From: Arcobacteraceae bacterium
GTDB taxonomy: Bacteria; Campylobacterota; Campylobacteria; Campylobacterales; Arcobacteraceae
DNA length: 64,000 nt
Assembly: GCA_963662945.1 (NCBI GenBank)
Contig: OY759974.1
Span: 1,088,001-1,152,000 of the forward strand
Reading direction: 5' to 3'
Positions 44,732-61,670 of the stretch are shown here, in pieces; position 1 is the stretch's first letter, and the number at the start of each line of letters is the position of its first letter. The notes under the pieces are model-generated. The model ran no database searches. It was not told the origin of the DNA and saw only the letters and a list, made by a program, of their open reading frames with translations. The translations under genes were made by a program, and so were the position numbers.

Positions 44732-44807
44732 TATCCAAAATTTTATCTTTCATATTTAATAAAATCAATATCGATTATCAAACTTCTCTACTTCTTCCTA
44801 CTCTTCA

Positions 44808-44935
44808 TGTGATATACAATAAAGTTTGATAACAAAAGAAAGATTTTCAGTCCTTTTATTTCAAATTAAATCAATAGTTATATAGTAAATTTTCTGTAAA
44901 CAAACTAAAAATATATTTAATAAAGTTTGATAATA
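44808..44935 (+). repeat. Second, internal transposon end (left-type)
   Basis: TGTGATATACAATAAAGTTTGATAAC at 44808; further site at 44919, spacing similar to the outer end. Confidence 0.85.
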
Positions 44936-44948
44936 AACTAACTATATG

Positions 44949-45806
44949 CTATATTGATATAACTTTTAAATTGCCTTTTTGTGTAAAAAATATCTCATTA
45001 TAATAAGTTGTTAAATTACTTACTCTATCTTTAGTAATTTGACTAAATACTTTATTTTTAATATTAAATTTATACAACCCATTTCTAGCTTGAATAATAT
45101 AATATGATTTATCAAAACTTATTACTAATTTAATAGTATTTGGAACATCATTCTCAGGTAGTACATAGCGGCTTGTATCTCCATTTTTAATATTAACTAA
45201 TAATAAGCCAAAGTCATAATCTATTATTGCTAATTGATTGCTTTTGTGATCATAGTAAATATCTTGAGGATTGTTAATTTCTAATTTATGTAATGTTTTA
45301 TAAACAAATTGTGACTTTTTATTTTTATAATCAATTCTATAAACTCCTGAATTTAAAATTGAAAGAAAAATGACTCCGTCATGTGCAACAATAGATGTAA
45401 TAGGTATAGTTTGATCTTGATTATTGAATATATCTAAATATATATCATCAATAAAACTATCATTTCTTAAGTTTATTCCAATTAATCCTCTTGTATTAGA
45501 AATAATAAATAGTACTTGCAGTATAGGATCGATAGTAATAACTTGTGCATCATTTATACTTTTTACTTTCTCTGTATAATTACTATAATATTTGTATAAC
45601 CCATCTCTAGTTAGTATGTAAAACCTATTTCCATATGCTTTAATATCTAAAATTATTGTATTATTCAAATTAAAGTTTGGTTCAAATATTAAATTTTCAT
45701 ACTTTTTATATTTTGTCTTAATATAGTCTTTGGTTATCTCTCCATTTAAATAACTTTTAAATAAATATGATTTATAAATAAATAAGGAAGTGATAATATT
45801 ACTCAT
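44949..45806 (-). CDS. Hypothetical protein, beta-propeller-like repeats
   Basis: Recurring blade-like motifs (LTRDGLY, SNTRGLI, ILNSGVY, DYDFGLL, QARNGLY). Confidence 0.55.
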   Translation of the reverse strand: MSNIITSLFIYKSYLFKSYLNGEITKDYIKTKYKKYENLIFEPNFNLNNTIILDIKAYGNRFYILTRDGLYKYYSNYTEKVKSINDAQVITIDPILQVLFIISNTRGLIGINLRNDSFIDDIYLDIFNNQDQTIPITSIVAHDGVIFLSILNSGVYRIDYKNKKSQFVYKTLHKLEINNPQDIYYDHKSNQLAIIDYDFGLLLVNIKNGDTSRYVLPENDVPNTIKLVISFDKSYYIIQARNGLYKFNIKNKVFSQITKDRVSNLTTYYNEIFFTQKGNLKVISI

Positions 45807-46240
45807 AATAACTTGCCTTCTATTAAGGTAGCAATTTCATCTTCAGATAAAATATCATTTGTACACCAAAACTCAAGTAGACTATTACCAATATCGTATT
45901 TTTTATTTTTTTCTTTAAAAGGAAAGACTGGATACCCATGCCAATCATCAGATTGAGGATTTTGTACTGCAGGAAAATAGCCAAACTGTTGTTTTTTTGT
46001 ACCAACTTTAATAATATCATTATCTTGCCTAATAAATCCCCACATATGCCCATTACAATCAATCCATTCTATACGTTGAGAATTTACCATTGTTCCAACT
46101 TCTGAAGTATCAAAAGTTTCAACTTCTAAAACTCTAGAAATCCATAGAGAATGCTTCTTATTTATACTGCTATAATGATGTTTTCCTCTGGATAGGTAAC
46201 TTTTAATACCTAATTTTGTAGGAAGTCTAATATCTCCCAT
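45803..46240 (-). CDS. Hypothetical protein with a WHGYP motif
   Basis: 145 aa, GAGGA RBS, 4-nt overlap with the downstream gene. Confidence 0.6.
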   Translation of the reverse strand: MGDIRLPTKLGIKSYLSRGKHHYSSINKKHSLWISRVLEVETFDTSEVGTMVNSQRIEWIDCNGHMWGFIRQDNDIIKVGTKKQQFGYFPAVQNPQSDDWHGYPVFPFKEKNKKYDIGNSLLEFWCTNDILSEDEIATLIEGKLL

Positions 46241-46251
46241 TTAATTCCTCA

Positions 46252-47001
46252 TTAGTTGATTGATTCAATATCTATCCATTCACCATAGTAATTGTCCGAG
46301 TACCAGTAAATTCTATCTCCTGTATCATATTTATTTCTATCATTTTCAAACTCTTGCTTTAAAGACTCAAAAATTGTAAATTTTAAAGTTTTAATTAAAT
46401 CTACTTTTTTATTATCAGTCTTAATATGAAGTTCTAAGGAGTAATTTCCATCTTTCCAATTAAAATGTTTTTCAAACAATTCTTCAAATGCCACAATAAA
46501 TGACTTATTTGCCCTTACTATTTCACCTTTTTCAGTTTCTTTTTTAATTCTTTCAATTTCATTTTTTAAGTTTCTTTCATTCTCTTTGTATTTTTTAACA
46601 TCATCTCTTGAAAAAAAATTTAAAAATCTTGCTCCATGGTGCCACTCCTCATTTGGATCAAGAGATACTTTCTTAAATGGAAAATAATAACTATCATTAA
46701 ATTTTTCTAAATAATTTTTTAAAGGCAATTTCATTATTTTTTCACCGTCTCTATAAACATCAATAAATATTTGATTTATGGATAAAGACGAACCACCAAT
46801 ATTTTTTATTATCAAATTTATTTGTATTATAGGATTACCAACATGATGTGTAATCCAAATTGAATCGTAAATATCAACTTCTAATTTTGCTTTTTTAAAG
46901 AAACGCCTAAGATAAGGAAGTGCACTTATTATCAGTGCTATAAAAGCAATAACCACACTCCAAAATTCTGGACGTGTGTAAAATGAAATATTATTATCCA
47001 T
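46252..47001 (-). CDS. Hypothetical protein with a single N-terminal TM helix
   Basis: FWSVVIAFIALIISALP followed by a beta-rich soluble domain. Confidence 0.6.
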   Translation of the reverse strand: MDNNISFYTRPEFWSVVIAFIALIISALPYLRRFFKKAKLEVDIYDSIWITHHVGNPIIQINLIIKNIGGSSLSINQIFIDVYRDGEKIMKLPLKNYLEKFNDSYYFPFKKVSLDPNEEWHHGARFLNFFSRDDVKKYKENERNLKNEIERIKKETEKGEIVRANKSFIVAFEELFEKHFNWKDGNYSLELHIKTDNKKVDLIKTLKFTIFESLKQEFENDRNKYDTGDRIYWYSDNYYGEWIDIESIN

Positions 47002-47227: not shown

Positions 47228-48973
47228 TTAAATATCTAGTATTTCAAGAATTTTACTTTCTAACCAATTTTTTCTATTTTCTATAGAAGTAGCATTCCAC
47301 TCCATAGGATAATCAGCAATAACTTTTTTAGTCATATCAAATGCTGTTACACCTGTATCATCTTCAGAATATTTACCTTTTCCTTTATAAATATTGATTT
47401 TTATATTATAAGGATTATTACTTGCAGAAATATTTTTTGAGCCACTCAATAGCGTTAAATTACCTAAACTATGTAAATATCTATTTACTTCATCTATAGT
47501 AAATTTATTTTTCCAATCATCAAATTCATTCCAACCAATTGGTAAAATGTGTTCTGTATGAATTGTATTATCTAAGTGAATGTACGCTAATTTTGCATCA
47601 TCTGTTATCCTATATTCTATTATTGTTAATAAAGGCTTTATCCATGCTGTATGATAAACATCATTACTATTAATCACTTCTTTAACTTGTTTTACAATAT
47701 TATCTTTTTCAAGTTTATTATTTAAACTAGTAGTTATATAGTTTATATGCTTTTTATCTTTTATCCATGAAATCATGTTAAATGAAATTTGTTTAATATG
47801 AGATAGTGTTTTTCCTGACATCCAATTTAAATAATAAAATCTTCTAAGAGAAATTTGTAACTCATCATAATATTCATAGTTTGTATGTAAAGCTGTAAGT
47901 AAAATACTCTTCCAGTATACTGTCCATCTTAAATACCAAAAGGAATAAAGTATTTTATCTTCCTTGTCCCAAATCTGATTTTTATAGGCATTAACAAACT
48001 CTGAAAAATCTTTTATGGTTTCATTTGGATCTTGTTGTTCAAAAATATCTTGCAATTCATCAGAAAGTGATTTTTTTGGATTTCTAGCAATTAAATAGTA
48101 AAGGTATAATGTAAACATATCGTTCATACTATCATATGTACCAGTTAATAAATTTTCTAAACGTCTCCATTCCGCAATAAACTCGTTTTCATCTTCTATC
48201 CTCGCTTCAAAATTTTCACCCTCATCAACATATTTTTTTTCTATTTGTTCTAATAAAAAGCTTTTTACTAAATCTGATGCAGTAAGGTCCATTCCCCTAT
48301 CATTTAAGACTTGAAATAGTTTTATTGCAAAACTTCTATCTTCACAATCTATTCTAATTATTGACACTTTATTAAATAAATATTCAATTAAATCTCCTGC
48401 TTTATCTTCACCAATCTCTTCAAGTTTACTTCTTAATATATAGGCACTATTTTGAAATTTCAACTTTGGTTGTTCATCATCCTTAAGTTGATACTTATAA
48501 GGTTTTTGATGCTTTAAAGTTGATCCCTCATTTATAATATTTTGTTTAAAGTCTGCAGAATGTTGGGGATCAGTAAGTAAAGTTAGTCTTTGATCACCAA
48601 AATTAAATATAGCACTGTTAATATGGTTTGTATTAATAGAATTTTTATTGTTATTAATATTAGGATATAAATCTCTTAATACACATAACAATATCATTAA
48701 AGTTGTTAACCTTTGTTGTCCATCAACAATATCAAATCTATTTGAACCCGCTTGCGGAGCTGCAGTAATTATTGAACCTAAAAAATAGTTTTTTGATTCA
48801 TTCTCAAATGATTCAAAAATATCATCCCATAACTGTTCAATTTGTTCATCTAGCCACTTATATGGTCTTTGATATTTAGGTATTCTATAAATAGAATCTG
48901 TATCCATAAAAAGTTGCTTTATTGTTCTTGATCTTGGTGTAAATAGTTCCAAATTATCCCTTTCATTAATCAC
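47228..48973 (-). CDS. DUF262-DUF1524 (GmrSD-like, type IV restriction) protein
   Basis: IPKYQRPYKW, IVDGQQRLTT and FQVLNDRG; C-terminal HNH-type EHILP and LGNLTLL...N. Confidence 0.88.
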   Translation of the reverse strand: MINERDNLELFTPRSRTIKQLFMDTDSIYRIPKYQRPYKWLDEQIEQLWDDIFESFENESKNYFLGSIITAAPQAGSNRFDIVDGQQRLTTLMILLCVLRDLYPNINNNKNSINTNHINSAIFNFGDQRLTLLTDPQHSADFKQNIINEGSTLKHQKPYKYQLKDDEQPKLKFQNSAYILRSKLEEIGEDKAGDLIEYLFNKVSIIRIDCEDRSFAIKLFQVLNDRGMDLTASDLVKSFLLEQIEKKYVDEGENFEARIEDENEFIAEWRRLENLLTGTYDSMNDMFTLYLYYLIARNPKKSLSDELQDIFEQQDPNETIKDFSEFVNAYKNQIWDKEDKILYSFWYLRWTVYWKSILLTALHTNYEYYDELQISLRRFYYLNWMSGKTLSHIKQISFNMISWIKDKKHINYITTSLNNKLEKDNIVKQVKEVINSNDVYHTAWIKPLLTIIEYRITDDAKLAYIHLDNTIHTEHILPIGWNEFDDWKNKFTIDEVNRYLHSLGNLTLLSGSKNISASNNPYNIKINIYKGKGKYSEDDTGVTAFDMTKKVIADYPMEWNATSIENRKNWLESKILEILDI

Positions 48974-49101
48974 AAATTATATATAAAAGTTATTTTATCT
49001 TAATAGTTGTAAGTAAAATGTTAAATAATTAAACTTCTAACTACCCTAAAAATTCATAAATTATGATATACTACTAAAATATGATAATAGGGAGAAATAA
49101 A

Positions 49102-49773
49102 ATGAGTAATAGTCATATTACTTTTCCACAAAGAAAAATCAAAAAAAGCTACCGTTCTGTTACTGGACACTTCCCTAGTATTAAAAACAATAAATCAATA
49201 GCATTTGAATCAAAACTAGAAAGTGAATTTTTTTTAACTCTTGAATTTGATGATAATGTAGCCACTTATCAAGAACAACCACAAATTGAAATTATTTTAG
49301 ATAATAAAACAACAACTTATAGTGCAGATTGTTATATACAAAGACCAAAGGGCTCTTTAAATCGTGATGCTCTTGTAGAAGTTAAATATACTACTGAATT
49401 GGAAAAAGAAAAAGAATATTTTGATAAGAAATTTAAAGCTATTGAAGCTTCTACTGAAGAACTTGATTTAGACTTTATAATTTATACAGAACTTCAATAT
49501 CCTCTAGAATATATTACAAATCTTAAATTTTTATATCGATATAGAACTCAACAAAGAGAAATGAGATATGATGAGATTATTAATGAACTATTACAAGATA
49601 AAAAATTATCTGCACATGAGTTAGCAGAAACTATCTCAAAAAATAAAGCGGAATATATTATTGTAGCAAATGCAATTTGGGGCTTAGTTGCAAATAATAT
49701 ACTCACAACTGATTTAAAATCATCTGAGATTAACATGAAATCTATACTGGAGAAAAATAATGGCTGTTGTTAA
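49102..49773 (+). CDS. tnsA: Transposon endonuclease TnsA
   Basis: FESKLE, YQEQP, YSAD and LVEVK (PD-D/ExK). Start placed at the ATG after GGAGA. Confidence 0.9.
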   Translation: MSNSHITFPQRKIKKSYRSVTGHFPSIKNNKSIAFESKLESEFFLTLEFDDNVATYQEQPQIEIILDNKTTTYSADCYIQRPKGSLNRDALVEVKYTTELEKEKEYFDKKFKAIEASTEELDLDFIIYTELQYPLEYITNLKFLYRYRTQQREMRYDEIINELLQDKKLSAHELAETISKNKAEYIIVANAIWGLVANNILTTDLKSSEINMKSILEKNNGCC

Positions 49774-51667
49774 ACTAACTCTAAATTCAACTATTGTTTT
49801 TGAAGGTGTAAAATATCTCATCAAAGGTTATGCTTCCCTTGATGAAGTTCTTGTAAAACAAATAGATCCACCTCATAAGGAAAAGATTTTAAAAGTTAGT
49901 GATATTATTAAAGAACCTCAAAACTCAACAGATAACATTCAAAGAGAACTTGTGGATACCAATGACAAAGAGTTTCAAAAAGCACTAGAGAGATACAAGG
50001 TAATAGAATCTTTAGTTGATATGCCAAGTAGAAACTCCAAAGAGGTACAAAAAGTTGCTAAAAAATATAAAAAAGGTGTAGCTACTGTTTATCGTTGGTT
50101 AAGTACTTTTGAAAAATTTGGTACTATTAGCTCATTGGTAGCTTCTTATAACAACTGTGGAGGTAAAGGGAAAAGTCGTCTCAATGAATCTGTAGATGCA
50201 GTTATAGACTCGGTACTTGAAGAACTATATCTCAATAAACAAAAATATGCTTTTCTAACAGTTTATAGAAAAATAGAGCAGCTATGTAAAAATCTTGAAT
50301 TAGAAGTTCCAAACAAAAACACGGTAAGAAGTAGAATCAAAGCACTAGACCCAAAACTTATCACTAAATATAGACATGGTGAAAAGATAAGAGATACAAG
50401 AGGAACACCTGGAAAGTTTCCAGAAGTAAAAATGCCCCTTGACGTTATACAAATAGATCATACTAAAGTTGATGTAATACTTGTTGACGAAGAGACAAGA
50501 GAAGAGATAGGAAGACCATTTATTACAGTTGCTATTGATGTATTTAGTAGAATGATATATGGTTTTTATATCTCTTATGAAGCTCCAAGTTTTTTTAGTG
50601 TTGGACAATGTCTTTTACATGCCATCTTACCCAAAGATGAAATATTAAAAAAATACAATGTAACTGGAGAATGGCCAGTTTTTGGTCTACCCCAAGCAGT
50701 CCATATGGATAATGGAAAAGATTTTCAATCAGTGAGTCTAAAAAAGTTTTGTCAAGAATATAGAATATCTGATATTTATAGACCCGTTGCTCGCCCAGAA
50801 TTTGGTGGAAAAATCGAGAGGGTGATAAGAACAGCAATGGAAAAAGTTCACGAATTACCAGGTTCAACATCTTCTAATATTCAGGACAAAGGAACCTATG
50901 ATTCTCAAAAAATGGCTACTATGACTATCAATGAATTAGAACAATGGTATACGGACTTTGTAGTAAATATTTATCATAAAACAATACATAGTAGCCTTGG
51001 TGTGACCCCTGAAGAAAAATTCTATGAGGGTATGTATGGAGTTAGTGGTGACTCTATACCTTTTTTACCACAAGTTCCTGCAGATACTATTAAACTAAAA
51101 ATGTCACTTCTTCCAGCTTTTGAAAGAACTGTACAAAAAAATGGAATCACAATAGACTATATAACCTATTTTTCCGAAACACTTAGAAAATGGATAGTAC
51201 CAGCAGCCTATAAAAAACTCAATAAGACTTCAAATACAATAACTTGCAGAAGAGACCCAAGAGATATTAGTAAACTTTATGTATATGACCCAGATATAAA
51301 TGATTATATAATTGTACCCTATGCTAATATTAAAAAGCCAGCTATGAACCTTACAGAGCTAAGAAGAGCTATTTCTGAAGCTAAGAAAACAGTAACAGGA
51401 AGAGAACTAGAATCATATGATATCTATGAAGCTTATGACAGACTTCACCAATATGTAGAAAATTCAAAAAGAGAAAAGAAGTCTGCAAGAAGACAAGCTA
51501 GTTCAAAAAAGCATTTAAAAAAGAATATTGAATACGAAAAACAAATCTTACAAGATGGTAATGGTCTTAAACAAGATGAGAAATCACTCCAAAACTCAAC
51601 AACTCATATCCAGAATACTTTTCAAGAAGAAGAGGATGATGGCTATGAATATTATCCAATTGGTTAG
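49760..51667 (+). CDS. tnsB: DDE transposase TnsB/TniA (Mu-like)
   Basis: HTH ATVYRW; QIDHT, GRP..T.AIDVFSR, DNGKDF, GKIER, RDPRDIS; acidic C-terminal tail. Confidence 0.93.
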   Translation: MAVVKLTLNSTIVFEGVKYLIKGYASLDEVLVKQIDPPHKEKILKVSDIIKEPQNSTDNIQRELVDTNDKEFQKALERYKVIESLVDMPSRNSKEVQKVAKKYKKGVATVYRWLSTFEKFGTISSLVASYNNCGGKGKSRLNESVDAVIDSVLEELYLNKQKYAFLTVYRKIEQLCKNLELEVPNKNTVRSRIKALDPKLITKYRHGEKIRDTRGTPGKFPEVKMPLDVIQIDHTKVDVILVDEETREEIGRPFITVAIDVFSRMIYGFYISYEAPSFFSVGQCLLHAILPKDEILKKYNVTGEWPVFGLPQAVHMDNGKDFQSVSLKKFCQEYRISDIYRPVARPEFGGKIERVIRTAMEKVHELPGSTSSNIQDKGTYDSQKMATMTINELEQWYTDFVVNIYHKTIHSSLGVTPEEKFYEGMYGVSGDSIPFLPQVPADTIKLKMSLLPAFERTVQKNGITIDYITYFSETLRKWIVPAAYKKLNKTSNTITCRRDPRDISKLYVYDPDINDYIIVPYANIKKPAMNLTELRRAISEAKKTVTGRELESYDIYEAYDRLHQYVENSKREKKSARRQASSKKHLKKNIEYEKQILQDGNGLKQDEKSLQNSTTHIQNTFQEEEDDGYEYYPIG

Positions 51668-51679
51668 GTTAGGTAAAAA

Positions 51680-52549
51680 ATGAATAATAGAATCTTAATT
51701 AAAGAAGCTGAAGAATATTTAACTAAAAGTGACGAAGAGAGAATTCTCTATTGTAAAAAAGATCATTGGATAGGATATGGAGCAGCTGTAAAATTGTTAG
51801 AACTTCTAGAAGATAAATTTGAAGACCCTCCACAAATGAGACATGAAGGGTTATTAATATATGGAGATCCTAATAATGGGAAAACTGCAATATTGAAAAA
51901 AATGTACAATTTACATAAAACCAATTTAGACTATGTAAATAAAGAAAATGAGATTGTCTATGAGATACCAATTATCTATTTTCAAGCACCTACAATTCCT
52001 GATGAGAGTAGATTGTATAGTTTAATACTCAATGAACTTTTGGTACCACACAAGCATACTGAAAAGATAGTAGAAAAAGCAAAATTATGTGAACACTATC
52101 TTAGAAAACTAGGTACTAAAATGATTTTAATTGATGAAATTCATAGTGCTCTAACAGGAAATCTCAATAAACAAAGAACTTTTATAGATGATTTAAAACA
52201 ACTAAGCAATAGACTTTCTCTAACGATTATCTTAGCAGGAACGAGAGAAGCACACTCAGCACTTTCTATTGGGAGTGAAACGAATACTAGATTTCCTTCT
52301 CTTGAACTTCCACGCTGGAACAATGATAGAAAGTTTAGATCTTTTGTAGCTACTTATGAAAGATGTTTACCACTTAAACTCGCTTCAAATCTGGCTGACA
52401 ATCCAGAGATTATGAATGCTTTATTTTATCAATCAGAGGGTTTAATAGGTAAGACTGTAAATCTTTTGAAAAAAGCAGCTGTAAAAGCAATCAAATCAAA
52501 AAGAGAATATATCATAGCTAGTGATATAGAGTACTTACCAAAACTCTGA
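51680..52549 (+). CDS. tnsC: AAA+ regulator TnsC/TniB
   Basis: WIGY, GDPNNGKT (Walker A), ILIDEIH (Walker B) and SEGLIG. Confidence 0.92.
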   Translation: MNNRILIKEAEEYLTKSDEERILYCKKDHWIGYGAAVKLLELLEDKFEDPPQMRHEGLLIYGDPNNGKTAILKKMYNLHKTNLDYVNKENEIVYEIPIIYFQAPTIPDESRLYSLILNELLVPHKHTEKIVEKAKLCEHYLRKLGTKMILIDEIHSALTGNLNKQRTFIDDLKQLSNRLSLTIILAGTREAHSALSIGSETNTRFPSLELPRWNNDRKFRSFVATYERCLPLKLASNLADNPEIMNALFYQSEGLIGKTVNLLKKAAVKAIKSKREYIIASDIEYLPKL

Positions 52550-52551
52550 TT

Positions 52552-53733
52552 ATGGCACAGTCAAAGAGAAATCAGGATTGGGTTCAAGACTATTTCTTTT
52601 TGATTATTCCAAAACTTCTACCAGATGAGTTATTAAGTTCATGGCTTACAAGATTAGCAATTGAACATAGATATAAACTTTCTGACTTTCTATCTTTATT
52701 TGTTAGAAAACAAGGACATAAAATCTGTAATATAGATATAGATTTTCAGTACAATGAAAAATTATTTCTAACCTTAGCTTTAAAAAGCAATATACCTATA
52801 AAAGATATTTGGAAACTGTCCCTTAGTAGTGAAGAGGGATATCTCTATTCCTGTAATGATTGCCTCTATCCTCCTAAACAAATAAGAAAATTAAAAGACA
52901 AAAGAACACACTATGGACTGATGTTTTGTCCAAAATGTTTAGCTGAAGATAAAATACCTTATTTTAGAAAAAAATGGAGATACTATTTTTATAATGCTTG
53001 TCCTAAACATAATATTTTTTTAACAGATAGATGTTGGTGCTGCTATGAAAGAATTTGTCTTCCTAAAATATCACATATGAAAGGTTTATCATATTGCAGT
53101 AGATGTGAAAAAGATTTAAGTACTACTATAGCAATACCTTTACAAAGTAATTATCAATATGCTTTAAAGGCTATACGATGGTTTGAAAAAGGTTTAAAAA
53201 AAGGCTATTTTATCATCAATCATCAAAAAGTAGCTTCTCTATTTGTCTTTGAAAGCTTCACAAATCTTTGCTTTTTACTTGATAGAAAAGAAAATTTAGT
53301 TTTAGATAACTTTCCAATGATTCAAGAATACGAAACAATATGTAAAAAACTTGCAAAATATGATTCTAAAAAAGCAACTTCTATACAAAAAGATTTTATC
53401 TTAACAGCAATGGTATATTTTTTATTTCAAAACTATCCAAAAAATATTCTAAGTTTTGCAGAAACTAACCATCTAACACATAGAGAATTTGTACATGGTT
53501 TTATAGATATCCCATATTGGTACAAAAATATAATTGACGAACTACTACCAGCACAAAATAAAATTGGTAGAGAGATAAGTGAAAGTGAAGTTAGAGCAGC
53601 TATAAAATATTTACAGAAACAGAATACTAAAGTAACACAGGAGGCAGTTGCAAACATTGTTGGCTGTCATTTTAGTATTCATAAGGGATTTGTGAAAATT
53701 TATAAAGATGCAAAAAAGTATTTGACCTTATAA
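52552..53733 (+). CDS. tniQ: TniQ/TnsD-family target selector
   Basis: PDELLSSWLTRLA, FCPKCL, W...CPKH...L.DRC, CSRC; C-terminal HTH-like TQEAVANIVG. Confidence 0.9.
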   Translation: MAQSKRNQDWVQDYFFLIIPKLLPDELLSSWLTRLAIEHRYKLSDFLSLFVRKQGHKICNIDIDFQYNEKLFLTLALKSNIPIKDIWKLSLSSEEGYLYSCNDCLYPPKQIRKLKDKRTHYGLMFCPKCLAEDKIPYFRKKWRYYFYNACPKHNIFLTDRCWCCYERICLPKISHMKGLSYCSRCEKDLSTTIAIPLQSNYQYALKAIRWFEKGLKKGYFIINHQKVASLFVFESFTNLCFLLDRKENLVLDNFPMIQEYETICKKLAKYDSKKATSIQKDFILTAMVYFLFQNYPKNILSFAETNHLTHREFVHGFIDIPYWYKNIIDELLPAQNKIGREISESEVRAAIKYLQKQNTKVTQEAVANIVGCHFSIHKGFVKIYKDAKKYLTL

Positions 53734-53734
53734 A

Positions 53735-54736
53735 CTAATCCTTGATTTTATCAAATAAGTCAAACTCTATTGTATATTTATTAATTCTAAAATACCCTTC
53801 GCTTGATGATGCAGAGTAAGAATCAGTAAATGGGTAATGTATATGTAAATTTATATCCTGATTATCATAATATTCATTCTCAAATATATAAAATAAAGCA
53901 ATTCCTATAGTTTGCGCTTTTGTTGCTAAAGGAGCTAAATGAATATTGTTAACTGCACTTTTATTTATAGATACATATTTTTTAACATATTCTGAAATAA
54001 CATGAGCTGTAATAAATGGGTTATTAGCAGGAGCATAAAGCAATTCTGTATTTTCTTTTATACCAAGTTCAGTTTTTGATTTTAATAAATTTAATATATT
54101 TTCTTGATACATAATAGCTTGCAAAGAAGGAAAACCAATTAATGGTTTAATTTCATTTGCTGTGACATTACGTATAACTTTATTAACCAATTTAGAATCA
54201 TATCCTACATTTACTATAAATAAATCATTTTCTCCTGATTTTGAGTATGTTTCGTATGGTGAGACAATATTTCTTGATTCAACAATATTATCAGAAAATT
54301 TTGTTTTATCACTTTTTAAATATCTCTGAGGTTCTGTATAAATTAAGTCGAATTTATCGATTCCCTTTTCTTTAAACCAAAATAAAAGAAAAACTAAATA
54401 AGGCTTATTAAAACCTGTTGTATCTATACAAATTTTATCCTTATCAGTAATATTTATATATTTTTCACACATGGCATTAATATATTCAGATTCTTTAATA
54501 TTATGATTAATTATATTATATTCAAAGATTTCACCATTAATTTGGGAAGTATCTATATTGTATTCTGGGAAAATTAAATATATCTTTTTTTCTGCCTGTA
54601 TATTATCATATGTTTTAATGACAATATCTTCTTGTGTGTATGCAGAGATAAATAAATCATAATTTTCAATATCTGTAGAAAACTCTTCAAAGCTTCTATA
54701 AGAATCATAATTAAAAAGATGATACTTACTAATCAT
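53735..54736 (-). CDS. Hypothetical alpha/beta protein, last gene of the four-gene cargo operon
   Basis: ICIDTTGF, YTEPQRY, GFPSL and LAPLATKAQ motifs. Confidence 0.65.
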   Translation of the reverse strand: MISKYHLFNYDSYRSFEEFSTDIENYDLFISAYTQEDIVIKTYDNIQAEKKIYLIFPEYNIDTSQINGEIFEYNIINHNIKESEYINAMCEKYINITDKDKICIDTTGFNKPYLVFLLFWFKEKGIDKFDLIYTEPQRYLKSDKTKFSDNIVESRNIVSPYETYSKSGENDLFIVNVGYDSKLVNKVIRNVTANEIKPLIGFPSLQAIMYQENILNLLKSKTELGIKENTELLYAPANNPFITAHVISEYVKKYVSINKSAVNNIHLAPLATKAQTIGIALFYIFENEYYDNQDINLHIHYPFTDSYSASSSEGYFRINKYTIEFDLFDKIKD

Positions 54737-56745
54737 TATAAAGTATCTCCAAATAAACTAGGAGTAATAAAAGAAAGCACTTTTTCTTTTTTGTTGAAAG
54801 GGGCATTATATCTTGACATATACTCTTTATGAATATTTAGCCATTCTTTATCTTCACCTTTACATAATATCTCTATATCATCAGCTTTAAATTGAAAAGT
54901 TCCTCCTATAGCAATATGCAAATCCCATTTTGCTGTTAAGATTGCAGGGACAGAATAACTATCCAACATCATTCCAGAGTTATTTTTTTCTTTTTTATCA
55001 ATACTTTTTTTTATTAGTAACATATGATTAACTGCTTTAGTAAGAATTGACTCTGATTCCTCTGATAATGTACCCTTATAGGAAAAAGCAATCAATGTTT
55101 TCTCCGTAGGTTTATTTGACATTCGAAATGCTTTAAAAAAACTATTTATTCTCTCTATCATTTTAATAACGAGTTTATTTTCTATATCTATAATTGCATA
55201 AGTCCAAAACTCATCTGAAGCATCTTTTATTGCTTTATATTGAGTTTTACATTTTATGGGATTATTACTATCAAACATAGGTTCTTCAGAAAATTTAGAA
55301 TTAATATAAATTTCACTTAATATCAACATTAAATTTCTAGGATTTGCATGCGAAAAATCAATTATTTTTTCAAGACCACAATTAAAAAATGTTATCGAAT
55401 AATCTCTACAAATCTGAAAGTAAAAGGTATTTTTTAAATGCCTAAGAGTTTCATTATCATGAATATTTTTAGAACTTCCTTCCATTGAACTTTTAATTTC
55501 TATACTTTTTTCAACTAAATTCTTGTTTTTACTCCAAGCTTGATATAGCAACCATATATTTTCTTTTTCTTTAAGTGGATCCATTGGACAAAATAAATTA
55601 TCTATTATAATTGATATTTCATCTAATGATAAACTTAATTCTTCTGAATATTCTTCTAACTGTTTTGATAAAGTTAAAAAATACTTTCTATCTTTCGAGT
55701 CAGGATGAATATCTAATACTTTTTTGATTATTTGATTTTCATTTAATTTTTGAAAAGAATCAATAAGAGCTTTCTCATCTAAATTAGCAAGATTTTTATT
55801 AAGTCTTTTTCTAATTAAATTAATAGCAAACTGTTTATAGTTGTTTGAATTATCAAGGTATGTTTCTAAATATTTTTTCGTTACTTCTGCATATGAATTT
55901 TTTTCATCATCTGAAAAAGTTTTTTCTTCTTTTATTGAATATAATCTACCTGATATTCTTATTGAAATTCTTTCTGAATATTTAGGGTGTCTTAAAATTG
56001 TATTCACAAAAACTTGCTGTTCTTTACTTAAATCTTCAAACTGGTCTAATAAAAATAAGAATCGAACATCTTTCAAAATCTTACTAGAATCTAGTATATA
56101 ATAACATATATCATAGAACATATTCGATCTTGTATCGAAAACTACATCAATATCAAGAGAATCTTTAAATCCTGTACGTAATCTCGAAAAAGCCCTATCA
56201 ACTTTTTTATGTTCTTGTCGGATTTTTTTATATATATACTCTATTGTAATTGTTTCATCAACTGAATCAAAAAAACACTCATTATACATACTAGAAACTT
56301 TTTCACAGTCTATATCATCTAACCCATTTAGCTGTAAATCTATTATTTGTTCTAAAAATGCTTCAATCAAAATTAAATTAAAATAATAAAAATACCACTC
56401 TTCCCAAATTGACTTATCTAATTTTGAGCCACTAAATCTTTCAAACTGAAAGTTTCCTAATTCTAATAGTAAACTTGTATATTTATCCTCTTTAATTTGC
56501 TCTAATATGGATCTATGTGTCGTTTTTAAAGCTCTAATTTTTTGAGCCTTATAAGAGCAATATCGTAAAATGTGAGTTTTCCCACTTCCTTTTCCGCCTA
56601 ATATTATTAAAGGTCTAGGATTTGTAGGTTCAATTACATCCAAAAACTTTTTATGTTCAATTTCATCATTTAATTCAACCCAAAAATTAACTATTTCATC
56701 ATTATTTAAATGAACAGCTTTAATATTTGAAAATGGATTATTCAT
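54736..56745 (-). CDS. Large P-loop ATPase (STAND / ORC-Cdc6-like)
   Basis: ILGGKGSGKT (Walker A), FLLDQFEDL (Walker B) and NPRNL. Confidence 0.8.
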   Translation of the reverse strand: MNNPFSNIKAVHLNNDEIVNFWVELNDEIEHKKFLDVIEPTNPRPLIILGGKGSGKTHILRYCSYKAQKIRALKTTHRSILEQIKEDKYTSLLLELGNFQFERFSGSKLDKSIWEEWYFYYFNLILIEAFLEQIIDLQLNGLDDIDCEKVSSMYNECFFDSVDETITIEYIYKKIRQEHKKVDRAFSRLRTGFKDSLDIDVVFDTRSNMFYDICYYILDSSKILKDVRFLFLLDQFEDLSKEQQVFVNTILRHPKYSERISIRISGRLYSIKEEKTFSDDEKNSYAEVTKKYLETYLDNSNNYKQFAINLIRKRLNKNLANLDEKALIDSFQKLNENQIIKKVLDIHPDSKDRKYFLTLSKQLEEYSEELSLSLDEISIIIDNLFCPMDPLKEKENIWLLYQAWSKNKNLVEKSIEIKSSMEGSSKNIHDNETLRHLKNTFYFQICRDYSITFFNCGLEKIIDFSHANPRNLMLILSEIYINSKFSEEPMFDSNNPIKCKTQYKAIKDASDEFWTYAIIDIENKLVIKMIERINSFFKAFRMSNKPTEKTLIAFSYKGTLSEESESILTKAVNHMLLIKKSIDKKEKNNSGMMLDSYSVPAILTAKWDLHIAIGGTFQFKADDIEILCKGEDKEWLNIHKEYMSRYNAPFNKKEKVLSFITPSLFGDTL

Positions 56746-57729
56746 TCAACTATTTCCTTTTTTTAAAAGCATATACTTTTTACTATATCGTTTAAATATT
56801 GATTGCCATTGCTTATTATTTGCCCAAAATATGGGAAGACTATTATTAGGAATATTATAAAAAAACCCTAATGCTAATTGGCCATCAGCAAATCCACACT
56901 CGTCCTTATTTAATTTTTTATTTTCATCTCTACTAATATCTTCATTTCCTAACTCAAACTTTTTTGAATAAGTATTTACACATAGTTCTTTAAATTCTTC
57001 TTTACAATTAGAAATAGTTTGAAAATATCTAGAAGTATCTGAAAAAACCTTATATGTCTCATCCAATTCAAAAATAGTATCAACATTATCAAATAGTTTT
57101 GAATCTTTTAGAGTTTTTAATGCTGTAGTAGTTGCAAATAGCGTGAAATATGAAATTTTAATTTTAGGAACTTTAGTTCTAATCTCTGAAATAATTTTAT
57201 GAAAACTTTCATTAGTTGCCTGACTACCACTACCACTTATATCATCAATATAAATTAACTGTTCTAGTTCATTATATTTTTCATTAACTATTAGTTCACA
57301 AGAATGAATAAATAATTCCTTTGGAATATTATTTCTTTGCCTAAAAAAATAAAGTATTATACTACTACTTTCTGATGGATTACCAATACTAGAAAATCTA
57401 GTTTTTAATAAGCTGTCATCTAAATATTCATTGTAATCATTTAACTTTAATGATTTCATTTCTTTTCTATATTTCTTTACTAAAGGAGCAATATATTTAT
57501 CTTTATATAATGATTTTAAAGCCTGTTTTATTTCTCTCTGATCATAAAACATAAATTGACTAAGAAGACTTAACGCAATAAACTTATTTTTATTTCTTTT
57601 ATCAGAAACTTCTTCAAAGTTCTTTAACCATTCTTCTATATCTTGTTCTAAAACTTTATGTCCCCATAACCATGTTGATAAATCTTGTATTTGGTCTTTT
57701 AACTTTTGTATTTGATTATTATATGTCAT
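56746..57729 (-). CDS. Phosphoribosyltransferase-fold protein (conflict-system type)
   Basis: PRPP loop IYIDDISGSGSQ, ESS motif and C-terminal GF...NIPNNSLPIFW. Confidence 0.78.
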   Translation of the reverse strand: MTYNNQIQKLKDQIQDLSTWLWGHKVLEQDIEEWLKNFEEVSDKRNKNKFIALSLLSQFMFYDQREIKQALKSLYKDKYIAPLVKKYRKEMKSLKLNDYNEYLDDSLLKTRFSSIGNPSESSSIILYFFRQRNNIPKELFIHSCELIVNEKYNELEQLIYIDDISGSGSQATNESFHKIISEIRTKVPKIKISYFTLFATTTALKTLKDSKLFDNVDTIFELDETYKVFSDTSRYFQTISNCKEEFKELCVNTYSKKFELGNEDISRDENKKLNKDECGFADGQLALGFFYNIPNNSLPIFWANNKQWQSIFKRYSKKYMLLKKGNS

Positions 57730-59092
57730 TATTTTTCTTAAATACTACAATATATTCTCTAGAAATAACACTAGCAGTTTTATTCCTTTTTGTCATTAAT
57801 CCTCGAGATTTAATATCATCAATTAAAATTAACTCTGTTGAAAATCCAATTTTTTCAGCAATCTTTATTAAATATTTATGGGTCATAAACTCATACCCTG
57901 CAATAGTATTATTACCAATTACCATCACAAAATAACCATTATTTTTTAAAACTTTATAATAATGAGTAAAAGATTCCTGCATTTCAAGTAAGTATTTATA
58001 TGTAATATAGGCTCGTAACTTATTTTTTTCATAAATCTTTAATAATATTTTATCAATTTTATTTATCCCAAAAACATGTAACTTGTCATATTCTTTTTTT
58101 GGAAAGTGTTCTCTACCAATTGATTGCTTATCTAATTCAGCAATCGTAGAATTATTTAGCTCTAGCCACTGTAAACTTAAACTAGAAGCTCTGATATATT
58201 TTTGTGCACTAACATAAGGAGGTGAAGTTAAAATCAATTGAACCGTATTTTTTTTAATATCTTTTTTTGTTAAATGTTTAATATCACTATTATATACAGT
58301 AACTTCATTTGAACTTAACATTGTACTATTTTGATATTCAACAAGTCTAGCTATATTCTTATTGGCTTGTTCAATAAAAAATTCAAAAACTTTACTTTTA
58401 TCAATAAATTTTAAATTTTTTATAGCAGCTTCTCTAAGAGAATGACCTTCTGGAAATTTATCTTTATTAATTTTTACTGGTACTGAAATTCTAGGATCAG
58501 AATAACTGAACTTTTTACAACAAATAGAAAAAACTACCAAATAAAACTCTTTTATATTTTGATCACTAATTTGACTAACGATATCTTTAATTTTAGATAA
58601 TTTTCGCATATTTTGTTTACTATACCAATGTTCTATATTTGACACTTTAGGTATATGATATTGTTTTTTAGAGCTGCTATAAATTTCAAAAAGATTTTTA
58701 ATATTTTCTAACTCTTGTTTTAAATTAATTATATCTACTTTGGAAGTTTTTGTTTTTGCAATTAAAGCAGCTAGTGGATTAACATCAACACCTATTGCAT
58801 TTCTATTAGCAAGAGATGCTTCTAATAGTACTGTTCCTGTTCCACAAAAGGGATCTACTACTATATCTTGTTCTCTAGAAAAAACTGTATTATTTAAAAA
58901 AAAATATGGTATTTGCTGTAATAACTTTGCAGGATAAGAATGTATAAAATGAGTATGTCTATCCATATTTACAATACTAGGTACTAATTCTCTAAAATTA
59001 ACAGTTATTGGTTCTTGATTCTCTTTATATTTATTTATTAATTCTAAAATATAATTATCAAAAAAACTAATACCCTTATATTGTTTATTCAT
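57719..59092 (-). CDS. Site-specific DNA amino-methyltransferase (N4-C likely)
   Basis: THFIHSYPAK, DPFCGTGT (motif I) ahead of TSPPY (motif IV). Confidence 0.88.
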   Translation of the reverse strand: MNKQYKGISFFDNYILELINKYKENQEPITVNFRELVPSIVNMDRHTHFIHSYPAKLLQQIPYFFLNNTVFSREQDIVVDPFCGTGTVLLEASLANRNAIGVDVNPLAALIAKTKTSKVDIINLKQELENIKNLFEIYSSSKKQYHIPKVSNIEHWYSKQNMRKLSKIKDIVSQISDQNIKEFYLVVFSICCKKFSYSDPRISVPVKINKDKFPEGHSLREAAIKNLKFIDKSKVFEFFIEQANKNIARLVEYQNSTMLSSNEVTVYNSDIKHLTKKDIKKNTVQLILTSPPYVSAQKYIRASSLSLQWLELNNSTIAELDKQSIGREHFPKKEYDKLHVFGINKIDKILLKIYEKNKLRAYITYKYLLEMQESFTHYYKVLKNNGYFVMVIGNNTIAGYEFMTHKYLIKIAEKIGFSTELILIDDIKSRGLMTKRNKTASVISREYIVVFKKNNDI

Positions 59093-59167
59093 TACTGCCC
59101 CAATTAATTCTTAATTTGTTAATATAACAAATTCAAGCTGCTATTAAGATAAAATGGTAAGTAAATT

Positions 59168-59947
59168 TTAAAATTCTATTTCAATACCTATTGGACAATG
59201 GTCAGAACCTTCTATTTCATCTAAAATAAAAGCATCTTTTAGTTTATTTTGTAAATCACTAGAAATAAAAATATAGTCAATTCTCCAGCCTTCATTTTTT
59301 ACTCGTCCTCTTGATCGATAAGACCACCAAGTATAAGCTTCTTCTTTTTCTCCATGAATCTGTCTATAGGTATCTATATAACCTACTTGGATAAACTTAT
59401 CTACACACTCCCTTTCAATATCAGAAAATCCAGACTTACTATATATTTTAGTTTTTTTTAAATCAATATCTTTATGTGCAATATTAAAATCACCACAGAT
59501 TATTATAGATTTTCCATCAGCTCGTAATTCTTCACAATGTGAAAAAAATTTATTATAAAAATTAATTTTAAATTCTAATCTTTCTTTTGATATCTTGCCA
59601 TTTGGAAAATAAACATTGAAAACTACTATATTTTCATAGTGTTGCTCAATAACCCTACCTTCCATATCAGCATCAACTAATTCACAAGTATTTTCTCTGA
59701 CGAAATCTATATTAGAATATGTCAAAGTACCAGATAAACCTTTCGTAATACCACTATTTACTGTAAAATTTTTATACTGTTTATTAAAGCTTTTAGGTAT
59801 TTCTTCTTTTATTGCTTTAATCTCTTGTAGACATAAAATATGAGGATGGATTTCATCAACCCAAAAAAAAGAATCTTTTTTTGCAGCAGCTCTTAAACCA
59901 TTAACATTCCATGAAAATATTCTTATTTTTTCTTTTAAAGTTTTTAT
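59168..59947 (-). CDS. xth: Exodeoxyribonuclease III / AP endonuclease (no canonical start codon)
   Basis: Frame is open upstream of the track's ORF through FSWNVNGLRA and LCLQEIK; NVYFPNG, GDFN, GWRIDY and GSDHCP. Confidence 0.88.
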   Translation of the reverse strand: MKTLKEKIRIFSWNVNGLRAAAKKDSFFWVDEIHPHILCLQEIKAIKEEIPKSFNKQYKNFTVNSGITKGLSGTLTYSNIDFVRENTCELVDADMEGRVIEQHYENIVVFNVYFPNGKISKERLEFKINFYNKFFSHCEELRADGKSIIICGDFNIAHKDIDLKKTKIYSKSGFSDIERECVDKFIQVGYIDTYRQIHGEKEEAYTWWSYRSRGRVKNEGWRIDYIFISSDLQNKLKDAFILDEIEGSDHCPIGIEIEF

Positions 59948-59963
59948 TAATATTTCCTATTAG

Positions 59964-61670
59964 CTATAAAAATATCTTTCCAATTAATCCAACTACCCAT
60001 TTAAACTTTTCATTATCAGTTAAATTTTCATTTCTCTCATGATTTTTTGTAGTGAATTTAATAGAACTCTCTTTATCTTGTTTTTTCATAGTATTTATTG
60101 CTTCAAGATCTTTAAAATGACGTGCTATGAAAATATGAAAATCACTATCCAAAATCTTTTGTTCTGATACCAATATCCAACTACTAGAAGCTGATGAAGG
60201 ATAATTTTCAAGTTCCAAAATTCCTACATGGAAATTTTTATAAATAAACGTTGCAGTTAAATACTGTCTAGGTCTACCATGCATCATACATTTAGAATTT
60301 ATATCTTCTGTATCTTTGATTGTAACTTTTGGCAACTCTTTTACCTCACTTAAATAAAATGATATTATCTCTTTTTGTATTTTTAAAAAATCCATGTATT
60401 GTCTAAATACTACAAAATTATCTATCTCAGATAAAGGCTTTGACTCATTCTGCTCTTTTTCAAAATTACTTGATACGACTACTTTTCTAATTTTTTTCTT
60501 CCCTTTTGTAGAAGACTCTGTTAGACTTTGATCAACTGCCTCATCAGATTGATGTTCTTCATAGATTTTAAATAAATCAATTATAGTCTCTTTAGTTACC
60601 GTCTCACTTTCAATTTCAATACCTTGAAGACTTCCACAAGTTTTTCTTTTTTCTTTTTGATGTTGAGTCTGAGTATTTTTTTTACTAGCAGCTTCAACTT
60701 TTAAAATTTCTGTTGTTTCATCTGGATTTTCTATATCTACTTTTGGTAAATTTTCTAATTCATCAATATCTGTTATTACCTTGTCTTTTTCATAATATTT
60801 AGTAAATTTATCAAAACCAATATCTGAATAATCATTTGTTATCTCATGCACATAATAAAATTCTTCATTTGTATCATCATTTTTCAATAAAGCTGCTCTT
60901 GTTTCAATTTTAAATATTTCTTTTATAGGAAACTTTACTTTAATAGGAACTGTCTTTATATCTTCTTTTTCTGGATAATTGTCATGCATAAACTTTAAAT
61001 AACTATGTATATACTTTGCAACATCTTCAAAAGCATAAGTTGCATCAGACTGACAGGCATATCTGTGAATAAAAGCAGCATCTGCATCTATTCTTGGATA
61101 TCTTAGTACAATTGAAGCATCATCCCTATCACAACAACAACCACTATATAGGTCATCTAATTTACATTTTAATACTGCTTCTCTTAAATGGGTAAATCTA
61201 TAGTAAAAGTAAATTGCAACTGCATAGTGGGGGATAATAATATTTACATTATCTTGTTTGAATAAATAACAATAGTTATACTTAGCTTCTTTTAAAAATT
61301 TTCTTTTCCAACCTATTAGTGAAACTATACTTTTTTCATCAAGTATTTTATGTAAATGTAAAGTATTGCTTTCTGCCAAATGTGTCGTATCAATAAGAAA
61401 GCTTTTTTCAGTTATATCTTTATTCGTATAATATTTAGTTTTGTCACCCTTTAGAAATGATTTTTCTAAAGGATAGTGGGTAAACAAAAGTTCAGGTGAC
61501 ATTTCATATAAAAAAACTTCTTTTTTTGTTATATTTTTGACTACAACATCAAAATGACTTTGACTATATTCTTCATCATCAAGTCTTAATCTAAGAGGAA
61601 AAAGTATTTTAAAAATATCTGTAGGATTATCTACCATAAATTCAGGGATAACACTCTTAGACTTTGACAT
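59964..61670 (-). CDS. TnsE-like target-selection protein
   Basis: By-eye colinear similarity to Tn7 TnsE as recalled: IIIP..., YYVHEI, NFVVF...FL, ELPKV, GRPR, ILELE, KNH. Similar length (568 aa). Confidence 0.7.
   Translation of the reverse strand: MSKSKSVIPEFMVDNPTDIFKILFPLRLRLDDEEYSQSHFDVVVKNITKKEVFLYEMSPELLFTHYPLEKSFLKGDKTKYYTNKDITEKSFLIDTTHLAESNTLHLHKILDEKSIVSLIGWKRKFLKEAKYNYCYLFKQDNVNIIIPHYAVAIYFYYRFTHLREAVLKCKLDDLYSGCCCDRDDASIVLRYPRIDADAAFIHRYACQSDATYAFEDVAKYIHSYLKFMHDNYPEKEDIKTVPIKVKFPIKEIFKIETRAALLKNDDTNEEFYYVHEITNDYSDIGFDKFTKYYEKDKVITDIDELENLPKVDIENPDETTEILKVEAASKKNTQTQHQKEKRKTCGSLQGIEIESETVTKETIIDLFKIYEEHQSDEAVDQSLTESSTKGKKKIRKVVVSSNFEKEQNESKPLSEIDNFVVFRQYMDFLKIQKEIISFYLSEVKELPKVTIKDTEDINSKCMMHGRPRQYLTATFIYKNFHVGILELENYPSSASSSWILVSEQKILDSDFHIFIARHFKDLEAINTMKKQDKESSIKFTTKNHERNENLTDNEKFKWVVGLIGKIFL

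Follow-up and report, generated by a model that had tools for sequence, protein, structure and literature searches.

We analysed a window of 64,000 nucleotides from the genome of an Arcobacteraceae bacterium (contig OY759974.1, positions 1,088,001 to 1,152,000) and investigated a block of four genes at window positions 53735-59092 (5.4 kb). The block encodes a DNA methylase, a phosphoribosyltransferase (PRTase), a large ATPase related to ORC/Cdc6 and a protein that models as a tandem CARF sensor, and it lies beside a Tn7-like transposition module (Table 1). The four genes are read from the same strand and are coupled, with an 11-nt overlap between methylase and PRTase, a 0-nt gap between PRTase and ATPase and a 1-nt overlap between ATPase and CARF gene. 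The coordinates of the open reading frames (ORFs) and all three junctions are exactly those of the first-pass annotation, which had been made from the sequence alone. All active-site motifs of the block are kept, and the motifs picked out in that annotation were all recovered in the translations, each on invariant or nearly invariant columns of the alignment of its own family. The G+C content of the region is 0.24-0.25, compared with roughly 0.23-0.34 (mostly 0.26-0.33) across the remaining window. A terminator scan of 53400-59400 returned none, within the four-gene block or elsewhere, and the 45 promoter-like sites in the same interval (48.7 in shuffles) are uninformative in such AT-rich DNA.

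Protein families of the four-gene cassette

Families were assigned with Pfam, PADLOC and NCBIfam profiles, the Pfam scan taking in 14 proteins between 43.7 and 61.7 kb, and AlphaFold (AF2) models were compared with known structures via searches of solved chains (48,161 for the CARF protein) and with Foldseek. NCBIfam gave no name to the PRTase, the ATPase or the CARF protein. The ATPase matched PF24389 (ORC-CDC6-like) with an E-value of 7.6e-81 and 273 bits, compared to a cut-off of 27. Its Walker A motif, GGKGSGKTH, corresponds to G50-x-K52-G53-x-G55-K56-T57-H58 and its Walker B motif to D234-E235-x-E237; in the family alignment G50, K52, G53, G55, K56, T57, H58, D234 and E237 are invariant and E235 is nearly so. 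The AlphaFold model, with a predicted local distance difference test score (pLDDT) of 86.7, comprises an AAA+ part, helical domains and a C-terminal winged-helix-like module. Its best structural match is PAB2304 (Z 13.4, 326 residues aligned, model residues 3-609); archaeal AAA+/winged-helix ATPases were matched at Z 13.4 and 11.9 and Orc1/Cdc6 on origin DNA at Z 12.2-12.3, followed by weaker matches to TnsC, Avs3, BrxC and RdrA. Foldseek returned Cdc6/Orc1 with a probability of 1.00, BrxC with 0.99 and also RdrA. With PADLOC, the AAA part of the fused model PDLC01925 was matched, and mad8 weakly (2.3e-4). A sequence profile search against solved structures gave nothing usable for this protein, 14-3-3 appearing at 0.021 and DnaA at 0.47.

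For the last ORF, the first-pass annotation had offered a weak hint of a CARF-like fold, which is now considerably firmer. This protein has no Pfam and no NCBIfam match, and it is matched by the PADLOC profile PDLC01914 of the CARF6 group (CARF6--CARF_CARF_CARF) at 2.2e-89. In its AF2 model (pLDDT 88.3, predicted template modelling score 0.91), two Rossmann-like domains fill the 333 residues. The top structural match is Can1 (6sce; Z 12.4, 216 residues aligned, residues 26-308) and is limited to the CARF domains of Can1, of which there are two in one chain. The CARF domains of Csm6, Can2, Card1 and Cam1 match the C-terminal half of the model, residues 144-324, at Z 10-12, and Csa3 matches at Z 9.0. 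The SAVED domains of Cap5 and Cap4 align over some 180-205 residues, their best rows reaching Z 9.1-9.7 and the lowest 6.4, and Foldseek returned the Csm6 CARF domain with a probability of 1.00. The sequence profile search against solved structures gave nothing usable (best E 1.2). IDTTG and LAPLATK are both present in the protein. Loop motifs containing S/T and K are kept in both of its halves, and we take these to be the CARF ligand loops. The last ORF therefore models as a stand-alone tandem CARF (CARF-CARF, SAVED-like) sensor without an effector domain.

The PRTase matched PF24390 (PRTase-CE) at 8.9e-54, with 183.5 bits compared to a cut-off of 27, and the PADLOC profile PRTase_III-A at 6.7e-36; the family profiles span residues 31-314 of 327. 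The PADLOC label denotes the effectors of type III-A retrons according to PMC13712802, and its reading as CRISPR type III-A is, on the same source, wrong. The loop that binds phosphoribosyl pyrophosphate (PRPP) is intact, YIDDISGSGSQ, with D162 D163 x x G166 S167 G168; across 30 sequences D162, D163, G166 and G168 are invariant and S167 is present in at least 90%. No usable match to solved structures was obtained by sequence profile search (best E 0.22). When the PRTase was modelled in complex with the first 340 residues of the ATPase, the score was 0.24 against a mark of 0.32, which is no evidence either way. The earlier proposal that the PRTase makes or depletes a nucleotide fits both the PRTase-CE/retron III-A effector family and the precedent of ShosT, a PRTase toxin for which PRPP binding, a required DD motif and a disturbed purine metabolism are described in PMC11961720 and PMC12961424.

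The methylase matched PF01555 (N6_N4_Mtase) at 3.3e-17 and the PADLOC profile MTase_II (PDLC03322) at 6.6e-52 over residues 40-454 of 457, together with a weak PADLOC match to mad2 (8.2e-13). Motif I (FCGTGT, residue 82) precedes motif IV (SPPY, residue 290), and SPPY is found in 67 of the 69 aligned rows, the remaining two being gapped at this position; two of the 69 rows are partial genes cut by contig ends. From its sequence, the enzyme is predicted to methylate an exocyclic amino group. As a rule, an SPPY motif such as that of the window enzyme points to N4-methylcytosine (m4C), which we suspect to be its product.

As the first-pass annotation had it, the cassette holds no recognisable restriction endonuclease: no nuclease domain was found in the four proteins with the three profile collections or in the two structure models, although a very divergent nuclease might escape such searches. 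There is little room for one, considering that the CARF and ATPase models have no unassigned domain and that the profiles span nearly all of the methylase and the PRTase.

Conservation, modular relatives and a thymidylate synthase link

A CARF profile built from 30 homologues found 102 relatives in contigs from one genome per species, of which 80 loci were kept, and all ORFs of these loci were searched with the four window proteins. Of the 66 loci whose contigs extend 4600 nt or more upstream of the CARF gene, 64 show the order methylase-PRTase-ATPase-CARF on one strand. Clustering of this kind greatly exceeds chance, and the co-occurrence on which the earlier proposal of a coupled operon depended is borne out. 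At the two exceptions, an insertion sequence transposase stands in place of the first two genes (L030) and a rearranged 739-aa ORF is found (L048). The remaining 14 loci are cut by contig ends and show the fitting part of the cassette, with all four genes in 4 of them. The cassette is almost certainly a functional unit.

The hosts belong to Bacteroidota, Pseudomonadota, Planctomycetota, Acidobacteriota, Latescibacterota, Spirochaetota and other phyla, and the family is rare: of 1.84 billion representative clusters, 1197 match at E <= 0.001 and 215 at E <= 1e-30. Full-length PF24389 matches are absent from 60 relatives of the window genome, of which 27 belong to the same genus; two of the 60 barely pass the cut-off, with a match confined to some 50 residues at the N terminus. 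Eight plasmid records, 5 of them conjugative, carry the CARF gene, whereas 0 of 50,697 phage records do. In the sole intact plasmid copy examined, from Moraxella, all four genes are called "hypothetical protein" in RefSeq. Neighbours at other loci include Fic, TIR-TPR, AbiGi, type I HsdM, DUF4365, integrases, transposases and SIR2. On the Rhizobium plasmid pRlX2 (L144) the ATPase region is annotated as two shorter genes, with a SIR2-family gene immediately downstream. Decay of this copy is possible, but the gene table of the plasmid is incomplete.

To place the cassette among its relatives, genomes of two phyla were searched for PF24389, 401 from Bacteroidota and 401 from Pseudomonadota. One centre genome in each set had been chosen for its cassette, and matches were obtained in 15 and 9 genomes, respectively. 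We annotated 21 further PF24389 loci by cassette type. Three are of the window type, two combine an N6_Mtase with PRTase-CE, one a C5 cytosine methylase with PRTase-CE and five a C5 methylase with HD-CE (PF24391). Four carry a calcineurin-like phosphoesterase and no methylase (wHTH-Calcineurin_assc, PF24408, in two of them), three hold kinase-containing forms of the ATPase, two of these being long kinase-ATPase-CARF fusions, and three are incomplete or of another kind. The gene order effector-ATPase-CARF is common to all variants found. In 13 of 13 variant loci tested the gene that follows the ATPase belongs to the CARF6 family, and its subfamily shifts with the cassette type; the C5 methylase is accompanied by PDLC01917 or PDLC01923, so the CARF6 subfamily does not track the class of methylase alone. 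That methylases of any chemical class fill the same place points to DNA modification as their shared purpose.

The two fusions (L121:8396-14296 and L122:7539-12270) are proteins of 1218 and 1236 aa that join a protein kinase, an ORC-CDC6-like ATPase and CARF6 and that adjoin a DNA methylase. The existence of such single chains ties the ATPase and the CARF protein functionally to each other. At the first of these loci, a Glycos_transf_3-type enzyme occupies the effector slot. At another locus (L120:6048-10791), the gene for DruA of the Druantia system immediately precedes those for a kinase-like/ORC-CDC6-like ATPase (846 aa) and a CARF6-like protein (383 aa), possibly a hybrid of Druantia parts and the PF24389-CARF6 family.

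Of the 64 complete loci, 16 have a thymidylate synthase gene next to the cassette, for either ThyA or ThyX, two enzyme types that are not homologous. ThyA is found at eight (L032, L035, L039, L040, L042, L043, L051 and L076), where it is the gene immediately before the methylase, at a spacing of -3 to 18 nt; its identity was confirmed by Pfam in three and by genome search in two more. ThyX is found at the other eight (L005, L010, L012, L041, L052, L057, L037 and L053; six confirmed by Pfam), six of which have it adjoining on the same strand, upstream or downstream, and two at a distance of 427-553 nt on the opposite strand. The loci bearing either enzyme fall in five separate places on the ATPase tree. 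Where ThyA is linked, 4 of 5 genomes encode another ThyA besides, and where ThyX is linked, a ThyA is encoded elsewhere in 5 of 5 genomes. Linked ThyA proteins share 64-82% identity with one another, compared to 62-72% with the other copy of their own genome, and, judged by this measure, form a similarity group of their own. In addition, genes for PRA-PH/MazG-like proteins are found in two loci and for AIRS/PurM-like proteins in two. The thymidylate synthase link suggests that the cassette may touch the metabolism of deoxyuridine and deoxythymidine monophosphate (dUMP and dTMP). Nothing relevant to the thymidylate synthase link was found in print, in a literature set that did not cover the key papers on the families.

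The Tn7-like carrier and neighbouring genes

The first-pass annotation had regarded the block as cargo and pointed to the defence genes often borne by Tn7-like elements. This picture holds: tnsA, tnsB, tnsC/tniB and tniQ stand in a row beside the cassette, as in Tn7-like transposons, and the neighbourhood is one of defence, with a GmrSD gene next door. The Tn7-like module (49081-53733) converges on the cassette, tniQ ending 1 nt before the stop codon of the CARF gene.

Table 1. Features of the cassette, its Tn7-like surroundings and adjoining genes, in window coordinates
Feature	Position	Strand	Length	Family match or remark
Methylase gene	57719-59092	minus	457 aa	
PRTase gene	56746-57729	minus	327 aa	
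ATPase gene	54736-56745	minus	669 aa	
CARF-like gene	53735-54736	minus	333 aa	
tnsA	49081-49773	plus		Pfam Tn7_TnsA-like_N
tnsB	49760-51667	plus		Pfam Mu-transpos_C/rve
tnsC/tniB	51680-52549	plus		Pfam TniB 2e-51
tniQ	52552-53733	plus		Pfam TniQ 4.1e-22
Candidate transposon-end repeat ATTTTATCTTAATAG, tnsA-proximal side	48992-49006	plus	15 nt	exact 15-nt inverted match to 59141-59155
Candidate transposon-end repeat, cargo side	59141-59155	minus	15 nt	
Third copy of the end repeat	53393-53407	plus	15 nt	one mismatch
GmrSD-type type IV restriction gene	47228-48973	minus		GmrSD_N 2.8e-37, GmrSD_C 8.6e-17; PADLOC HEC-06 6.4e-53
Three low-G+C ORFs	43691-47001		249, 285 and 346 aa	
xth (exodeoxyribonuclease III)	59168-59950	minus		
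ORF between xth and mnmG	59964-61670	minus	568 aa	

An exact inverted pair of 15-nt repeats flanks the module and the cassette, the cargo-side copy lying 48 nt beyond the start codon of the methylase gene and 12 nt before the stop codon of xth. Allowing up to 2 mismatches, the repeat has 7 matches in the window compared to 1.94 expected, and 0 of 100 shuffles reached 7. The pair would frame a candidate element of roughly 10.2 kb with the cassette as its only cargo. A further copy is located within the 3' part of tniQ. Neither a target duplication nor an empty site was found via the xth genes of relatives, which share 64-68% identity over long alignments and no neighbours. By tblastn, there are no Tn7 genes beside the other 80 loci.

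The GmrSD-type gene lies just outside the element, divergent from tnsA. The three ORFs beyond it gave only two family matches, both far below the cut-offs, and the region from 43.7 to 49 kb looks like a second island adjoining the transposon. On the other side, the xth frame is open and full-length and has the N-terminal ...RIFSWNVNGLRA motif; its first 75 codons or so contain no ATG, GTG or TTG, and the ORF list shows only a 185-aa piece that begins at a TTG. We therefore rejected its reading as a truncated gene: it is a full-length open frame that lacks a canonical start codon, with either an unusual start codon or a start that has been lost. Beyond xth, towards mnmG, the 568-aa ORF went unmatched in all three profile collections.

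Proposed function and alternative explanations

The closest likeness is to cassettes in which the ORC-CDC6-like ATPase (PF24389) occurs with PF24390, with PF24391 or with a calcineurin-like effector and PF24408. The ATPase and effector families of the window match far above their cut-offs, the effector-ATPase-CARF order is the same and so is the predicted output, nucleotide damage; PF24389 has its Walker A and B motifs, the CARF6 protein is encoded directly downstream and the effector directly upstream. The last ORF falls within the CARF6 census families of PADLOC (PDLC01910-01925), as PDLC01914. Unlike the kinase-ATPase-CARF fusions, the window has ATPase and CARF as separate genes, no kinase and a PRTase as effector. 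With Can1 and the SAVED proteins, of type III CRISPR systems and CBASS (cyclic-oligonucleotide-based antiphage signalling systems), it shares two CARF-like halves in one chain; in contrast to Can1, Csm6, Can2, Card1, Cap4 and Cap5, its CARF protein has no fused effector, and the cassette contains no cas genes or cyclase. The Cas10 or CD-NTase cyclase typical of type III CRISPR or CBASS was not found above threshold in the source genome. The PRTase is of the same effector family as that of type III-A retrons (PADLOC 6.7e-36), but the 14 proteins between 43.7 and 61.7 kb include no reverse-transcriptase family; a non-coding RNA was not searched for. Likewise, the DD PRPP loop that ShosT requires for toxicity in the ShosTA pair is kept, but no DprA-like antitoxin is present among the same 14 proteins. 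BREX (bacteriophage exclusion) and MADS also couple a DNA methylase to an ORC/Cdc6- or STAND-like ATPase, and the ATPase model resembles BrxC, but PglZ, BrxA, BrxB, BrxL and the other MADS genes are missing, with a CARF sensor and a nucleotide-targeting effector in their stead. The cognate endonuclease of a type II restriction-modification system was not found beside the methylase.

The first-pass annotation could match the block to no named, validated system. This stands in so far as no experimental paper was found; its novelty was overstated, as parts of it are already covered by Pfam PF24389/PF24390, by PADLOC CARF6 and by a fusion described in 2014. That the Pfam numbers PF24389-24391 and PF24408 lie so close together hints at a single source, which we believe to be Nicastro et al. 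2023 (NAR 51:11479), reportedly a description of Calcineurin-CE, HD-CE and PRTase-CE as nucleotide-degrading immune effectors. Depletion of NTP pools by such effector domains is stated in PMC12839542, and the kinase-AAA+-CARF fusion family was already noted in 2014 (PMC4012209). As far as can be told, the families held in Pfam and PADLOC had been predicted to be immune by computation, and the cassette is not categorically new.

On balance, the four genes probably form an immune cassette that is complete in itself and moves horizontally, carried here by a Tn7-like transposon with no other cargo. It would belong to a modular family of ORC/Cdc6-like ATPase and CARF6 with a nucleotide-targeting effector and usually a methylase, and would most likely confer abortive or restrictive immunity. 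The roles given in the first-pass annotation, self-marking by the methylase and sensing by the ATPase, are plausible. The methylase would mark the host chromosome. The tandem CARF protein would bind a small nucleotide signal arising on infection and the ATPase would act as the switch, with or without DNA contact, so that both together would release PRTase-CE; this effector would then harm the nucleotide pool by chemistry on PRPP or a glycosidic bond, and phage replication would be halted at the expense of host growth. The thymidylate synthase beside a quarter of the relatives may indicate the pyrimidine/dTMP branch as the affected metabolism. The methylase may shield self DNA from the sensor, as in BREX, or the breakdown products of its mark may be the signal, for which N6-methyl-deoxyadenosine monophosphate (m6-dAMP) would be a precedent; the calcineurin variants that have no methylase and the CARF6 subfamily pattern favour neither role. 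We prefer the reading as an immune switch because the ATPase-CARF core is constant, the variable slot acts on nucleotides, and ShosT and Calcineurin-CE are precedents. The latter depletes deoxynucleoside triphosphates in a validated system, according to a preprint (10.64898/2026.01.15.699771).

Several observations weigh against an immune switch of this kind. In the source genome, a single contig that is 99.99% complete, a cyclase to make the signal was searched for and gave 0 matches to SMODS, 0 to Cmr2 and three to Csm1 at 19-28 bits, compared to a cut-off of 170; nor is any cyclase recurrent among the flanking ORFs of the 80 loci. The window ATPase is very divergent, on a long branch and with at most 30% identity to the rows of the tree, and no profile match joins PRTase-CE to any solved PRTase. 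The depletion attributed to PRTase-CE would be by analogy, borrowed from relatives and from a published abstract. Calcineurin-type relatives have no methylase, so the ATPase-CARF core can do without one. The window copy has no thymidylate synthase, MazG-like or PurM-like neighbour, and such neighbours in nucleotide metabolism would equally fit a pathway outside immunity. In the experimental literature, no phenotype was found for any member of the cassette family.

On a different view of the signal, which we consider unlikely, the methylase would not shield self DNA from the sensor but would write a private mark, and the CARF ligand would be methylated mono- or oligonucleotides from a chromosome degraded by phage, the cassette thus sensing the destruction of its own DNA. 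It would account for a CARF protein to which neither the cassette nor the flanks of the 80 loci offer a cyclase, nor the genome any above threshold, and for a methylase that is obligately linked, yet has no nuclease. It would also suit the three interchangeable methylase chemistries and the change of CARF6 subfamily with cassette type, and the preprint 10.64898/2026.01.15.699771 describes a validated PUA-Calcineurin-CE-HAD system activated by m6-dAMP from Dam-methylated host DNA. The same low weight is given to the whole chain, in which methylated nucleotides bound by CARF would let the ATPase license PRTase-CE and the thymidylate synthase of the relatives would buffer or rescue dTMP. There is no direct evidence for a methylated ligand, however; the CARF6 subfamily is not tied to methylase class alone (PDLC01917 or PDLC01923 with C5 enzymes), the calcineurin-type cassettes lack a methylase of their own, and the ligands of solved CARF domains are, by the titles of the structures, cyclic or linear oligoadenylates and not methylated deoxynucleotides.

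The nucleotide enzymes could instead belong to a mobile pathway that makes or installs an unusual base and that the ATPase and CARF protein regulate, with no role in immunity. The intact PRPP loop would suit such a PRTase, as would the recurrent neighbours ThyA/ThyX (16 of 64 loci), PRA-PH/MazG-like (2) and AIRS/PurM-like (2), but most loci, like the window, lack these accessory enzymes, the effector slot of relatives holds phosphohydrolases (HD-CE, calcineurin-like) that degrade rather than build, and PRTase-CE is a retron III-A effector family. Considering also the sporadic and mobile distribution, with defence genes alongside, we regard this pathway as improbable. Much the same, or slightly less, is to be said for an addiction or stabilisation module, in which the PRTase would be a toxin restrained by the other proteins and would retain the transposon or plasmid. 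Here a Tn7-like element carries the cassette and nothing else, elsewhere the cassette lies on conjugative plasmids, and the PRTase toxin ShosT belongs to a toxin-antitoxin pair (PMC11961720); against this, four large genes with a sensor and an AAA+ switch exceed what addiction needs, and the other 80 loci have, by tblastn, no Tn7 genes beside them. Addiction and defence are not mutually exclusive. A cryptic restriction-modification system, with an unrecognised nuclease within one of the four proteins, is very improbable. In its favour, the link to the methylase is obligate, sequence is a notoriously poor guide to restriction enzymes and Can1, the best structural match of the last protein, is a nuclease; however, that match comprises the CARF domains only, two Rossmann-like domains fill the 333-aa protein, the ATPase model is filled by its AAA+, helical and winged-helix parts, and the profiles cover residues 31-314 of the PRTase and 40-454 of the methylase.

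With the preferred reading of an immune cassette, genome annotation would gain names for genes that are now "hypothetical protein" in the plasmid copy examined, and the compact 5.4-kb copy on a small Tn7-like element makes for easy cloning. The family raises the questions of what a CARF protein binds where there is no cyclase, why a methylase is obligatory where there is no nuclease, and why a second thymidylate synthase has been gained repeatedly. If the cassette does sound an alarm on the destruction of its own DNA, there would be a new class of ligand for CARF domains and a signalling role for methylases of the restriction-modification type. If it is defensive, it would unite self-marking by methylation and sensing through nucleotide second messengers, two themes that are usually separate.

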